22,525 nt of DNA from Opitutales bacterium (GTDB taxonomy: Bacteria; Verrucomicrobiota; Verrucomicrobiia; Opitutales; UBA9783). Every line of letters begins with the position of its first letter. Position 1 is the stretch's first letter. Below are positions 17,058 to 21,781 of the stretch, piece after piece. Both the position numbers and the translations under genes were made by a program. Where the stretch lies: assembly GCA_024407725.1 (NCBI GenBank), contig JAKSVZ010000014.1:1-22525 (forward strand). Reading direction: 5' to 3'. The notes beneath the pieces were generated by a model. The model saw nothing but the letters and a program-made list of their open reading frames with translations. It was not told the DNA's origin and ran no database searches.

Positions 17058-17846
17058 TTAGAACTGTAATCCAGCACCGATAAAGAATTGATCCGACTTT
17101 AGATTGGCTTGCTTATCCCAGTCGTTACCTAACATACGGGAAGTTCCGATTTGCTTGGTGGCTACATGACGATAACCGAAGTCAAACAAGATCGCTTGCC
17201 AGTTGATACGTCCGAAGATCATGAAGTTGTACATGAACATTCCAGCATGTAGGTATCGATGACCTACAACACTCTTAGCGCCACCGAAGAGCCCCCCATT
17301 ATTCAATTTGGGAGTAATTATCGTTGTGAACCTTGTTGCGGAATATCCACCACCGATACCACCGGCGATACATACAGAAGCCCAGTCCAATAGGTATTGC
17401 TCATAAGTCAAGTTAACCATTGCGCCTACCATACGGATGTTTTTAGGAGCTAATTGTAGATTGTCAATCTGGTCATCCACAACCATCGCTGGAATCTCAG
17501 CATCTTTCAAAATGTTCTTGGAGGCTAAAAATCCATCATCCTTTTTGAATTTAGCATAAGCACCCATGATTTCGAAATCGACATTGATGCCAGCGAAATT
17601 CCAAATATCATACATCGAACCAAAAGCAACCGATAAATTCTTGTGGCTCTTGTATTCAGGTTTTTCTAATTCATCCAATCCCTTTTGTGTCTCTTCGTGA
17701 TTACAAGTAACCTTGTCTTGAGCTTTGAGGGAGCCAAATCCGCTACGTACCATTACGTAATGTCCTACGGCACCTTCACCTACGCTAGCGAACAATGCAC
17801 TGCTGGATACAGCACCGCATAACGCCATTAATAATTTTTTATTCAT
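17058..17846 (-). CDS. Outer-membrane beta-barrel protein (porin/OmpA-barrel-like), 262 aa
   Basis: Signal peptide MNKKLLMALCGAVSSSALFASVG, alternating amphipathic beta-strand pattern, aromatic girdle residues, and the C-terminal terminal-Phe signature FFIGAGLQF. Good RBS (AAGGA) upstream of the ATG. Confidence 0.8.
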   Translation of the reverse strand: MNKKLLMALCGAVSSSALFASVGEGAVGHYVMVRSGFGSLKAQDKVTCNHEETQKGLDELEKPEYKSHKNLSVAFGSMYDIWNFAGINVDFEIMGAYAKFKKDDGFLASKNILKDAEIPAMVVDDQIDNLQLAPKNIRMVGAMVNLTYEQYLLDWASVCIAGGIGGGYSATRFTTIITPKLNNGGLFGGAKSVVGHRYLHAGMFMYNFMIFGRINWQAILFDFGYRHVATKQIGTSRMLGNDWDKQANLKSDQFFIGAGLQF

Positions 17847-17925: not shown

Positions 17926-19407
17926 CTAAACTTTAAATAAAGCATTGAGTTTTGTCAACGTCTTTTTTGCATCTCCATAGATCATACGAACGGAATCTTT
18001 TGTAAACAGAGCATTTTCTAAGCCGGAATAGCCGCTGCCAGAACCGCGTTTGAGGATCAATACATTTTTAGCTTTGGATACTTCCAAAATGGGCATGCCG
18101 TACAAAGGTGAATTGGGGTTATCGACTGCATCGGAATTAACCACATCGTTTGCTCCGACCACAATGACCACATCGGTATTGGGGAAGCGTTCGTTGGCGG
18201 CTTCTAATTCGAGCAGTTGGTCATAATCCACATCGGCTTCTGCCAATAAAACATTCATGTGACCGGGCATACGTCCTGCCACGGGATGGATAGCAAAGAA
18301 CACTTCGGCCCCATGCTCCATCAGTTTTTGTGCGAAATCCTTAAGGGCATGTTGTGCTTGAGATACGGCGAGGCCATAACCAGGGACAATTCCGATCGTG
18401 CGGGCGGCCTCAATAGGATAATACGCATCCTCGATGGATAATTCTTTGGGGGTCTTATTGCTACTAGATTGCGCTTTGGTGGCTGTTGTTTTGAACCCTC
18501 CTAATAATACTTTAAGGATGGAACGGTTCATGGCCTTGCACATGATAACCGTTAAAATAAGGCCGCTGGTTCCTACCAGACAACCGGCAACAATCAGGAC
18601 TTTGTTTAAGGAAATAAGACCGGCTGCACAGGCTGCTAACCCTGAAAGGCTATTGAGCAGGGAGATGATGACGGGCATGTCCCCTCCTCCGATATGAAGT
18701 GTCCATAGAATTCCTGCAGCCAAGCACCAAATAATAACACCTATAAAGGGCGCCATGGTATCCCCATAGGCATAGGTTAAGGAGCGAGGGCCTAACCAAC
18801 GGTAGGAGCCAGCAATCAGCCCGATTAATAAGATAATATCCACGGCGCGTTGACCAGGGAAGGTGATAGATTTGCTGGGGAGCTTGCGGCTAAGTTTGCC
18901 ATAGGCTACTAAACTGCCCGTAAAGGTAATGCCTCCGATAATCACTGCCAACACAATGGCGATTTGTTCAAAATAGAGAGCAGGGCTATAAGGGGCTTGC
19001 GACCATGATATTTGATTAGCTATAAACTGATAGATAAGTTGATGGGTTGCCCGTGGGGTAGCAAACCATTCTGCAGGTAATGGGCGCATCAACTTTAGGC
19101 CTTCTACAATCCCAATCGCCCAGCTGGCTAATCCACCGAAGCCGTTAAATAGGGCGACCAGTTCGGGCATAGCGGTCATCTGAACTTTAATTGATAAGAT
19201 GAAGCCCAAAATCGCTCCTATTAATACGGTAAGGGATACCCAAAGCGGATTGGGTACGGGATAAGCGTATAAAGTGACGCTGATGGCGATTCCCATGCCG
19301 ATAGCAGAAATGAGATTTCCTTGGCGCGCGCTTGTGGCCTTTCCCATTTGCTTAATGCCGGTAATGAGTAAAATAGCAGCCAAAATGTAACCGCAATCAG
19401 CAATCAT
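17926..19407 (-). CDS. pntB: NAD(P) transhydrogenase subunit beta PntB
   Basis: N-terminal multi-TM domain plus C-terminal NADP(H)-binding dIII (GYGLAVSQAQH, HPVAGRMPGHMNVLLAEA, VIVVGANDVVN). Its start overlaps the pntAB stop (ATGA, 19404-19407). Confidence 0.95.
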   Translation of the reverse strand: MIADCGYILAAILLITGIKQMGKATSARQGNLISAIGMGIAISVTLYAYPVPNPLWVSLTVLIGAILGFILSIKVQMTAMPELVALFNGFGGLASWAIGIVEGLKLMRPLPAEWFATPRATHQLIYQFIANQISWSQAPYSPALYFEQIAIVLAVIIGGITFTGSLVAYGKLSRKLPSKSITFPGQRAVDIILLIGLIAGSYRWLGPRSLTYAYGDTMAPFIGVIIWCLAAGILWTLHIGGGDMPVIISLLNSLSGLAACAAGLISLNKVLIVAGCLVGTSGLILTVIMCKAMNRSILKVLLGGFKTTATKAQSSSNKTPKELSIEDAYYPIEAARTIGIVPGYGLAVSQAQHALKDFAQKLMEHGAEVFFAIHPVAGRMPGHMNVLLAEADVDYDQLLELEAANERFPNTDVVIVVGANDVVNSDAVDNPNSPLYGMPILEVSKAKNVLILKRGSGSGYSGLENALFTKDSVRMIYGDAKKTLTKLNALFKV

Positions 19408-19694
19408 CGATTTTCCTTATCTTTTGCATGAAACATTTTAAGCATGCGATCGGTTACCGCATAGCCACCTACAATGTTTAAGGTTGCGAACAAGATGCCG
19501 CCATAAGCTAAGATGGTTGTAATGCAATCAGTAGTGTGCGATAGAGCGATAAAAGCGCCTATGAGGGTAATGCCTGAAATCGCGTTGGTTCCTGACATTA
19601 AAGGGGTATGAAGCTGAGAGGGAACCTTTGTGATGAGCTCAAGCCCCAGCCAACTTGCTAAAACAATACAAATACCTAACCAACCGTATTCCAT
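19404..19694 (-). CDS. pntA: NAD(P) transhydrogenase subunit alpha part 2 (PntAB, membrane segment)
   Basis: 96-aa, three/four-helix membrane protein with LHTPLMSGTNAISGITLIGA, typical of the split-alpha PntAB. Translationally coupled to pntB. Confidence 0.88.
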   Translation of the reverse strand: MEYGWLGICIVLASWLGLELITKVPSQLHTPLMSGTNAISGITLIGAFIALSHTTDCITTILAYGGILFATLNIVGGYAVTDRMLKMFHAKDKENR

Positions 19695-19744
19695 TAAAAA
19701 TCATACAAAACGCTTTTGATGGTTTTGTAAAGAAAAGGTACGTT

Positions 19745-21715
19745 TTACTTTATAGGATCTTCGGTTTTGATTGGCTCTTCGGTTGCTGAGGATGTCGTTT
19801 CTTGTTCAGGGAAAAGATAATTTTTTGCTTCCATTAAAATTCTCTTTATGTCTTCTACAGCACCATCCGAAAAGATTTTATACCTCAAATTCTTTTCTAA
19901 ATTGGCTAAGGTTGTTTCTTTACCACCAACTAGCGTTTGAAAATACGATTGTACAGCGCTTTTACAGTCTTTTTCTTCTTCTTTATTAGTGACTTTTAGA
20001 ACATCCTTCATAATGTCCGCATTATCCCAATCGGGGGTCGTATTATCGGTTAAGTTATTAAATCGGTTTTTAAACCTGTTATCTTGAGTGTTTTTTGAGA
20101 ATTCCCGATAGAATTCTACGCTAAAATAATTTTCAAGTTCTCGTGTTTTGGTATGTGTCAAGCCAGGCTGATCAGGTTCATTACCATCGTCCTTGTCCAT
20201 AATCATGAACGTGAACAGTCCGCATAATTCTGATAATACATTATGTGGGTTTTTCATAGTGTCCTTGCCCTGAGCGTTTATAATGTATATCTTCTTTGAT
20301 GTATCAAAAATTTCTTTGAAGTCGGAAATATTGTTAATGTTCTCAAAAAAACGTTGATCGCATAAGCCTTCAACCAATAAAAAGTTCTTGGAAAAATAGG
20401 GAAGAAGCCCCATTTCTTCTATGAGTTTTCGTTTGTTTCCTTCGATTTTTTCAGCTTTGCCGTTTTGAACCAACACTGTCTGACTGCTTATTTCTGGTAT
20501 ATTTACTATCTCCGGCGTATGGGTTGTGAATAAGACTTGGTGATGGCCTGTTTTGGAAAGGGTTAGGATGGTTTTAAGCAAGTGTAATTGCCAATCGGGA
20601 TGTTGACCGATTTCCGGTTCCTCTAGGGCGTAAATTACGTTTCTGCCTTCATTGTTTTGCTCTTTTGCTTCTGCTTTGAAAAGAGCAAACAACAATAGCC
20701 GATTAAGTCCACTTCCCTGTTGTTCTATAGGAAGTCCGGTTTGATCTTTAAAGCTATAATCAAATAATGATAGCGCATGCTTGTTATTTAGTTGGGTATG
20801 TTCTGTTAACTGGAATGAATTCTTTAGGTTTTCAGGAAAATCTACTTTTATCTGCTCATTTATCGCTTCGGTGCTTATTCCCAATTCTTTTTCTACATTG
20901 CTTTGCAACTCATTAAGTTGTGGTTGTAGTTTCTCAATTATTTTGTCATTAATTTTTTTAGTAAAATCCGACGTGTTTTTATTGTTTGAGTAGGATATAG
21001 TATCCGCTTTGAATAGGTAATACCGAGGAAGCGCCTTCAGTATGTACTGACAAAATGTATTACAGTCGTCCTCACTTGTGTCGATATAGATTTTGCCTGC
21101 TTCCCTTTTAAGCCTGCTTTGGTTGGGTTGATAGATTTCCCAGAGCTTTTGGCGTAATTTCGGTTTGCTATAATATTTTTTATCATTGGGTGCCAAGAAG
21201 TTGTATGTACTTTTGAGTTTATCAAAAGATAGGCAGCTAAGTGGGCGGTCATGATATGTGAGATGTTCTTTTGGGCAGATGTATTTTGTTGTGTAGACTT
21301 GATTTTGTTTTCCCCAAGTAAACCTTTTGGTGATGGTTAACCTACTTTTTTCATCGAGGAAGTGTTCAGCCGCTAAAGTGGTTATGTCCCCGCTGGGTAA
21401 TATAATGTCTGCATCGCCAGCAATCTCAAACGAGCAGGTGATTTCTATAGAGTCGGATTGCTCTCTCTCTCTCTCTCTCTCTCTCTCGGGCTCAACATGC
21501 CTATCGTTTTCGGTAAGCTCATCGTCATCGGAAAAAAAGATATCCAACGCCTTTAATATGGTTGATTTTCCGCAGTTATTTTTACCGACAATGGCGCAAA
21601 GATCTTGGAACTCAATGGTTATATCTTTAAAAATCCTGAAATTCTTTAAGGTTAAGCTTCTGAGTTTGCAGGAGTTAGCTAATGATTTTTTTGATAAAGG
21701 TTCTTCCGTGGACAT
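19745..21715 (-). CDS. OLD-family-like nuclease: N-terminal ABC-type ATPase with a long helical insertion, fused to a C-terminal Toprim/DUF4435-like domain (candidate standalone defence nuclease)
   Basis: Walker A GKNNCGKST (aa ~44-52), QQGSGLNRLLLFALF signature-like loop, Walker B VIYALEEPEIGQHP, H-loop VLFTTHTPE. The C-terminal Toprim motifs are FLLVEGLCDQRFF (catalytic Glu) and FMIMDKDDG (DxD), comparable to E. coli YbjD LLVEGETE / VLVDGDEAG. The gene is visibly more AT-rich and Lys/Asn/Ile-rich than its neighbours. Confidence 0.75.
   Translation of the reverse strand: MSTEEPLSKKSLANSCKLRSLTLKNFRIFKDITIEFQDLCAIVGKNNCGKSTILKALDIFFSDDDELTENDRHVEPEREREREREQSDSIEITCSFEIAGDADIILPSGDITTLAAEHFLDEKSRLTITKRFTWGKQNQVYTTKYICPKEHLTYHDRPLSCLSFDKLKSTYNFLAPNDKKYYSKPKLRQKLWEIYQPNQSRLKREAGKIYIDTSEDDCNTFCQYILKALPRYYLFKADTISYSNNKNTSDFTKKINDKIIEKLQPQLNELQSNVEKELGISTEAINEQIKVDFPENLKNSFQLTEHTQLNNKHALSLFDYSFKDQTGLPIEQQGSGLNRLLLFALFKAEAKEQNNEGRNVIYALEEPEIGQHPDWQLHLLKTILTLSKTGHHQVLFTTHTPEIVNIPEISSQTVLVQNGKAEKIEGNKRKLIEEMGLLPYFSKNFLLVEGLCDQRFFENINNISDFKEIFDTSKKIYIINAQGKDTMKNPHNVLSELCGLFTFMIMDKDDGNEPDQPGLTHTKTRELENYFSVEFYREFSKNTQDNRFKNRFNNLTDNTTPDWDNADIMKDVLKVTNKEEEKDCKSAVQSYFQTLVGGKETTLANLEKNLRYKIFSDGAVEDIKRILMEAKNYLFPEQETTSSATEEPIKTEDPIK
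21461..21487. repeat. Perfect dinucleotide microsatellite (CT)13C, read as (GA)n on the coding strand, inside the ATPase-Toprim gene
   Basis: Direct reading: 27 uninterrupted alternating C/T bases flanked by G on both sides. It is translated on the minus strand as EREREREREQ (codons ~76-85), just downstream of the Walker A helix. Confidence 0.97.
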
Positions 21716-21781
21716 TTTAAAAAATTAAATTACTAGGCATGTTAGCCTAAAATTTATAAAAAGCAAAAAATTTTGCGAATT

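Follow-up and report, generated by a model that had tools for sequence, protein, structure and literature searches.

Phase variation driven by simple sequence repeats (SSRs) has been described many times in a few host-adapted pathogens, where it acts on surface structures and restriction-modification (RM) enzymes, and these two groups account for most of the known phase-variable functions (PMC11868660). An N-terminal enrichment of SSRs is a recognised signature of phase variation, long SSRs being otherwise selected against (PMC3315296). In Helicobacter pylori sabA, CT tracts of 6 to 10 units near the 5' end of the coding sequence differ in length within one and the same strain, with the gene in frame at 7 and 10 units (PMC2715451). 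The BREX-related Pgl system of Streptomyces coelicolor is cited as "phase-variable phiC31 resistance" in two papers (PMC3710099 and PMC12839542). In the literature searched, we found no SSR reported in the gene of a characterised OLD protein and no report of SSR phase variation of OLD or Gabija proteins. Here we describe a perfect dinucleotide tract of 27 nucleotides (nt) near the 5' end of a predicted OLD-family ATPase-nuclease gene, located on a 22,525-nt stretch of DNA (contig JAKSVZ010000014.1, positions 1 to 22,525, assembly GCA_024407725.1; the whole stretch is referred to below as the window) from an Opitutales bacterium, an uncultured member of the Verrucomicrobia. Judged by its anatomy alone, the tract is a probable candidate for an SSR contingency locus, of a gene class and in a phylum where such loci are unusual.

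The repeat tract and its reading frames

The tract spans positions 21461 to 21487 of the window and belongs to a minus-strand open reading frame (ORF) at 19745 to 21715. The letters at these positions are CTCTCTCTCTCTCTCTCTCTCTCTCTC, a microsatellite of the form (GA)13G on one strand and (CT)13C on the other, with 13.5 units and 100% purity. It corresponds to nt 229 to 255 of the 1971 nt of the gene, within the first 12% of the coding sequence (CDS) and in frame 0, and codons 77 to 85 are read as ERERERERE, that is (ER)4E, followed by Q.

To determine how unusual such a run is, we compared it with its own window, with shuffled sequence, and with other loci. Tandem Repeats Finder reported no second dinucleotide array in the window, the second-longest dinucleotide runs there being two (GC)4, and dinucleotide-preserving shuffles of the window contained no match to (CT)6. 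The comparison set comprised 85 loci totalling 1.40 Mb, mostly from Verrucomicrobia. Dinucleotide runs of 4 units occurred 178 times in this set, runs of 5 units 16 times and runs of 6 units once, and there was no run of at least 7 units. As a sequence, the tract is real and far outside chance. The original prediction had described a perfect 27-nt tract without a match in the window, starting about 230 nt into the coding sequence and reading EREREREREQ, and these particulars all hold.

The reading frame is kept at 7.5, 10.5, 13.5, and 16.5 units, i.e., at every third unit. Loss of one GA unit opens a frame that ends in ...AIRLYRNHLLV at a TGA (21426-21428, minus strand) and gives a product of 95 amino acids (aa), while gain of one unit opens a frame that ends in ...SNPTL at a TAG (21445-21447, minus strand) and gives a product of 90 aa. 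The original prediction had placed these stops 11 and 5 codons downstream, respectively, and had concluded that either slip truncates the protein after Walker A; our frame analysis bears out all three points. The Walker A motif, or P-loop (GKNNCGKS, residues 44 to 51; 21563-21586, minus strand), lies 25 codons upstream of the tract in invariant alignment columns, so that with stops after residues 90 and 95, everything beyond the first ATPase helix would be lost. Both shortened products end 40 to 45 residues past Walker A and contain none of the other catalytic elements. The first in-frame ATG past the tract is codon 435 (20410-20412), just upstream of the Toprim domain, and thus no obvious restart could rescue the ATPase; a Toprim-only product initiated at codon 435 is conceivable in OFF cells. 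Altogether, this is a long, uninterrupted SSR whose unit length is not divisible by 3 and which is found in the 5' portion of the coding sequence. At the sequence level, the proposal that this layout matches an SSR frameshift switch is borne out for length, purity, position, and early stops.

We consider it rather likely that the tract is a hypermutable microsatellite that makes the gene a frameshift ON/OFF locus. Slipped-strand mispairing at replication would add or remove GA units, and unit changes that are not a multiple of three would shift the frame just past the Walker A helix. A stop would follow within 5 to 11 codons, and the resulting fragment of 90 to 95 aa, lacking the ABC signature, Walker B, the H-loop, and the whole Toprim domain, would constitute a null allele until a later slip restores the frame. 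In-frame lengths (10, 13, or 16 units) would merely shorten or lengthen a surface loop of ER repeats. When folded as single-stranded DNA, the tract showed no structure (z = -0.3), so slippage would need no hairpin and there is no structural signal at this site.

The OLD-family gene that carries the tract

The gene at 19745-21715 (minus strand, 656 codons) is intact. Its product matched Pfam AAA_15 over residues 17 to 404 (7.8e-54) and OLD-like_TOPRIM (PF20469) over residues 441 to 509 (5.3e-07, 30.5 bits against a cut-off of 23.2), which places an ABC-type ATPase region at 20504-21667 and a Toprim nuclease domain at 20189-20395, both on the minus strand. The PADLOC models matched were AriA, Old, and GajA. 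A Foldseek search with the AlphaFold model, whose mean predicted local distance difference test (pLDDT) score was 70, returned the OLD protein of Thermus scotoductus (6p74) first, followed by GajA and the effector of retron Eco8; 6p74 was also the best match by sequence among solved structures. Furthermore, when aligned with 23 homologues, the product retains the family residue at each of the 20 invariant columns. The invariant ATPase residues comprise G44, N46, G49, K50, and S51 of Walker A, G334 and G336 of the signature, E365 and E366 of Walker B, and H399 of the H-loop, and those of the Toprim domain are E449, G450, and the DxD pair D507 and D509. The earlier assignment of the tract to an ATPase-nuclease gene is thereby confirmed by Pfam, PADLOC, and Foldseek, with OLD as the family.

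The same alignments bear on the quality of the assembly. The source is a short-read metagenome assembly and no independent contig covers the tract, as would suit a mis-join at low-complexity sequence or a repeat that the assembler had collapsed or expanded. Nevertheless, the AAA_15 homology passes through the tract without a break or a change of frame (residues 17 to 404), both flanks come from the same gene, the insertion amounts to exactly 9 codons, and 27 nt is shorter than the read length. We therefore regard an assembly or sequencing artefact as very unlikely.

Regarding the class of the system, the product combines an N-terminal ABC ATPase with a C-terminal Toprim domain, as do class 1 OLD proteins, and like them it has no partner: its neighbours are pntA and pntB genes and a sugar transferase gene, and three homologues lie among unrelated neighbours. 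No helicase, DUF4435 protein, or reverse transcriptase (RT) is encoded beside it by any ORF of the window. Given this and the unrelated surroundings of the homologues, the gene is best described as an intact, stand-alone (class 1-like) OLD-family gene encoding a predicted ATPase-nuclease. The product falls into a distinct subfamily, its closest members being 31 to 33% identical.

Three related systems were considered and rejected. Gabija does not apply, as an ORF for the UvrD-like helicase GajB is missing on both sides of the gene and also beside the three homologues. In the case of PARIS (AriA/AriB), the PADLOC match to AriA is limited to the generic AAA_15 region and the Toprim domain is OLD-like; moreover, no DUF4435 match at E <= 0.1 was found in the product and an AriB-type partner gene is absent. 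For an effector of the retron Eco8 type, the score against NF038234 was 44 bits relative to a cut-off of 250, there is no RT ORF nearby, and an Rfam scan of the window found only a tRNA and no msr/msd noncoding RNA.

From its family, the product presumably acts in defence, restricting phage or foreign DNA, and may be autotoxic. If the gene switches as proposed, a population would mix nuclease-ON and nuclease-OFF cells. This mixture would hedge the benefit of the nuclease, namely restriction of phage or foreign DNA as suggested by homology to P2 Old, class 1 OLD proteins, and GajA, against its cost, which would be self-damage or the exclusion of useful DNA.

Origin of the tract and the search for other alleles

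To distinguish a DNA-level from a peptide-level origin, we compared the region around the tract with homologues. The loop between F60 and I92 has 31 residues here, compared to a mode of 23 and a range of 20 to 28 in the 23 homologues, and 22 residues if the tract is removed. By this comparison, the tract is a net insertion of about 9 residues in a surface loop. In the structure model, residues 62 to 88 form a loop (block-mean pLDDT, 62 to 69) flanked by a helix at residues 50 to 61 (means of 10-residue blocks, 86 to 92) and a strand at residues 89 to 98 (91); judged from the model, changes in the length of this loop should be tolerated.

The ER repeat might instead have been selected as protein, as a charged flexible linker or interaction motif, with the DNA repeat as a by-product. 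The peptide is indeed in frame, on the surface, and regular in its alternation of charge. However, an ER-rich peptide was found in none of 206 homologues, at the tract site or elsewhere, and (ER)4E is the sole dipeptide repeat of at least 4 units among 207 family members. The original prediction had named as a check whether homologues without the tract encode the same peptide in mixed codons; none of the 206 does, with the limit that only distant homologues exist. Codon choice also speaks against selection on the peptide. Outside the tract, GAG makes up 23% of the Glu codons and AGA 15% of the Arg codons of this gene, and the exclusive use of five GAG and four AGA codons has a probability of 3e-7 on the gene's own usage and 4e-10 on that of its neighbours. 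In addition, removal of the tract restores, to within a residue, the modal loop length of the family. An origin by selection on the protein is accordingly highly improbable. Taken together, the absence of the insertion from homologues and the choice of codons indicate that the tract was built by DNA slippage, as selection on the peptide cannot explain the codons. Growth by single units would imply passage through out-of-frame states and back.

We then examined the closest relative. The closest species representative is the metagenome-assembled genome UBA3869, whose pntB and sugar transferase are 94% and 95% identical, respectively, at the aa level and in which the gene order is the same. UBA3869 lacks a full OLD gene: what remains in a 250-nt spacer at this site is an upstream hairpin (described below), the initiation codon and roughly the first 10 codons, and roughly the last 40 codons of the gene. 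The remnant has 45 codons (L001 9535-9672), with its ends fused in frame at the same chromosomal site after an internal deletion of about 1.8 kb. The remnant indicates that the gene predates the split of both lineages and was later cleanly deleted. The GC content of the OLD gene is 0.373 versus 0.455 in its neighbours, and AGR triplets account for 11 of its 20 Arg codons versus 14 of 283 in the neighbours; the gene is thus foreign in composition. On these sequence grounds, it is of an accessory, dispensable, fast-turnover kind. Since the pnt genes and the sugar transferase gene are retained in UBA3869 and the homologues have no conserved partner, the OLD gene probably acts as a single-gene unit.

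To find other alleles and the habitat of the host, we searched public sequence collections. A Logan contig of 1646 nt (L086, run SRR17543914) is 100% identical to positions 18708 to 20353 of the window. This run comes from a horse faecal metagenome study (PRJNA438436; PMC9529974), for which raw reads from 11 horses are on record (SRR17543904-SRR17543914), and the match indicates that the host is a gut commensal of a phage-rich habitat. Orthologues with other repeat numbers were not found: the best match had 32% identity in a word-indexed search of 5.8 billion proteins and 33% identity in an exhaustive phmmer search of 1.84 billion representatives. A scan of JGI metagenome contigs gave distant fragments only, and a scan of viral contigs gave no matches. 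When the OLD protein and the proteins encoded next to it were looked up by exact sequence, only the source assembly and the one Logan contig were recovered, and nothing besides the source assembly reached the tract.

Several of these results, together with others from the literature and the surrounding sequence, weigh against a frameshift switch. No length variants were found, and the gene is carried by one assembly only, a singleton in public data whose allele is a metagenome consensus. The one independent contig, L086, ends 1.1 kb from the tract. Ten predicted slip variants (+/-1 to 5 units) returned no match in a collection of about 15 billion proteins, a weak negative, as essentially one sample holds the organism. 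No second long SSR occurs in the window, nor does one occur in the syntenic 21 kb of UBA3869, and the lineage thus shows no sign of general SSR switching. SSR phase variation in Verrucomicrobia was not found in the literature searched. Lastly, the roles in defence and toxicity rest on homology at 14 to 33% identity.

Some of these points would equally suit an incidental, neutral microsatellite, in which a GAGAGA seed grew within a loop that tolerates insertions, the accessory gene being weakly selected, without consequential reversible switching. Such a tract could be fairly stable in a mismatch-repair-proficient host or could mark a stage on the way to losing the gene. In favour of this view, the gene is dispensable and UBA3869 has lost it by outright deletion, no further SSRs lie nearby, none of the 10 variant alleles was found, and the loop varies between 20 and 28 residues across the family. 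On the other hand, dinucleotide tracts that are long and perfect are intrinsically unstable, and prokaryotic coding sequences are generally purged of them (PMC3315296), and runs of this length class are absent from the 1.40 Mb of comparison loci. Purity at 27 of 27 positions implies that slippage outpaced point mutation, and the intact ORF with all of its catalytic residues argues against ongoing decay. On balance, we consider an incidental microsatellite unlikely, though less so than an artefact or selection on the peptide.

With regard to the frameshift switch, we infer the slippage rate in this host, the reversibility of the change, the defence function, and the selective advantage. Adaptive bet-hedging, as opposed to mere instability, is a possibility that we advance with reserve. 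More tentative still is the full proposal of a selected contingency locus, in which SSR-based bet-hedging of a single-gene OLD nuclease operates in a gut Verrucomicrobium; if so, no SSR phase-variable OLD or other non-RM nuclease defence gene, and no SSR contingency locus in this phylum, would have been described before it.

Flanking sequence and comparison with described systems

Downstream of the OLD gene lie a pntA fragment with four transmembrane segments (19404-19694) and pntB (17926-19407), and upstream lies a sugar transferase gene (Bac_transf). Some 50 nt separate the OLD gene from pntA, which has the same orientation, and an early stop in OFF alleles might exert polarity on pntA and pntB. 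The gene for the soluble dI domain of pntA is not adjacent to the pntA fragment and pntB, either here or in UBA3869.

This arrangement is relevant to one further explanation, in which the tract acts without frameshifting through a DNA or RNA structure (an H-DNA triplex or an R-loop) that dampens the transcription of the nuclease gene or of pntAB downstream of it. Polypurine-polypyrimidine mirror repeats can form H-DNA. The tract is a perfect mirror repeat of this composition on a transcribed gene, and a consensus scan gave no independent promoter for pntA. Against this, the single strand lacks secondary structure, 27 nt is short for stable H-DNA, UBA3869 has the same pnt genes without the tract, and frameshifting follows from the sequence anyway. 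A structural role is thus scarcely credible, the least probable of the explanations considered.

Between the stop codon of the sugar transferase gene and the start of the OLD gene, a terminator-like hairpin, TTAGGCTAACATGCCTAG, is followed by a T-rich tail (21733-21750, minus strand); its conservation extends to UBA3869 (L001 9497-9514). The hairpin resembles a terminator that delimits the OLD gene unit on its upstream side, and it could also serve as an operator for this gene. Its motif TAGGCAT has no meaningful recurrence elsewhere in the window.

Two other features of the window were recorded. At 17058-17846 on the minus strand, an ORF of 262 aa has an N terminus resembling a signal peptide and keeps its position in UBA3869 (L001 11561-12328); it has no Pfam or NCBIfam matches and is possibly a lineage-specific outer-membrane protein. 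At the extreme end of the contig (window 1-55), a perfect 15-nt tandem repeat, GGAACCCTTATTGCG, is present in 3.7 copies upstream of an LptA/LptC-like ORF (157-1134), and this repeat may be the reason that the contig ends there.

If the OLD gene does switch, the logic of bet-hedging would extend to stand-alone ATPase-nuclease defence proteins, a class whose burden on the cell is a matter of current interest, and would reach uncultured gut commensals outside the classical phase-variable genera. If the switch is moreover selected, the fitness cost of OLD nucleases would be handled by stochastic ON/OFF switching rather than by regulation. Confirmed switching would also mean that consensus metagenome assemblies can hide ON/OFF heterogeneity from inventories of defence genes.

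Among described proteins, the product resembles T. scotoductus OLD (6p74) and phage P2 Old in joining an ABC ATPase to a Toprim domain, in having no partner, and in the conservation of its catalytic residues, although identity to 6p74 is only about 14% over the fold by Foldseek. It shares a homologous ATPase-Toprim fold with GajA, whereas, unlike in Gabija, no GajB adjoins it.

With respect to switching, the phase-variable Type I and Type III RM systems (phasevarions) likewise have an SSR within the reading frame of a defence enzyme that targets nucleic acids and generate stochastic ON and OFF subpopulations. In contrast to them, the present locus consists of a single gene for an OLD-family protein, and in the absence of a methyltransferase no epigenetic regulon is expected. 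Pgl provides a parallel as a defence system outside classical RM that is known to switch on and off, but it is a multigene system of another protein family. The Pgl switch is a homopolymeric G tract in pglX and not a dinucleotide repeat. Compared to H. pylori sabA, the product here is a cytoplasmic ATPase-nuclease rather than a surface adhesin, the tract has 13 units rather than 6 to 10, the host is an uncultured gut Verrucomicrobium without a known phasome, and one allele is known, whereas length heterogeneity is documented for sabA. Nonetheless, the two loci share the CT/GA unit, the position in the 5' part of the coding sequence, and the rule by which every third unit (here 10, 13, and 16) leaves the gene in frame and all other lengths lead to an early stop.

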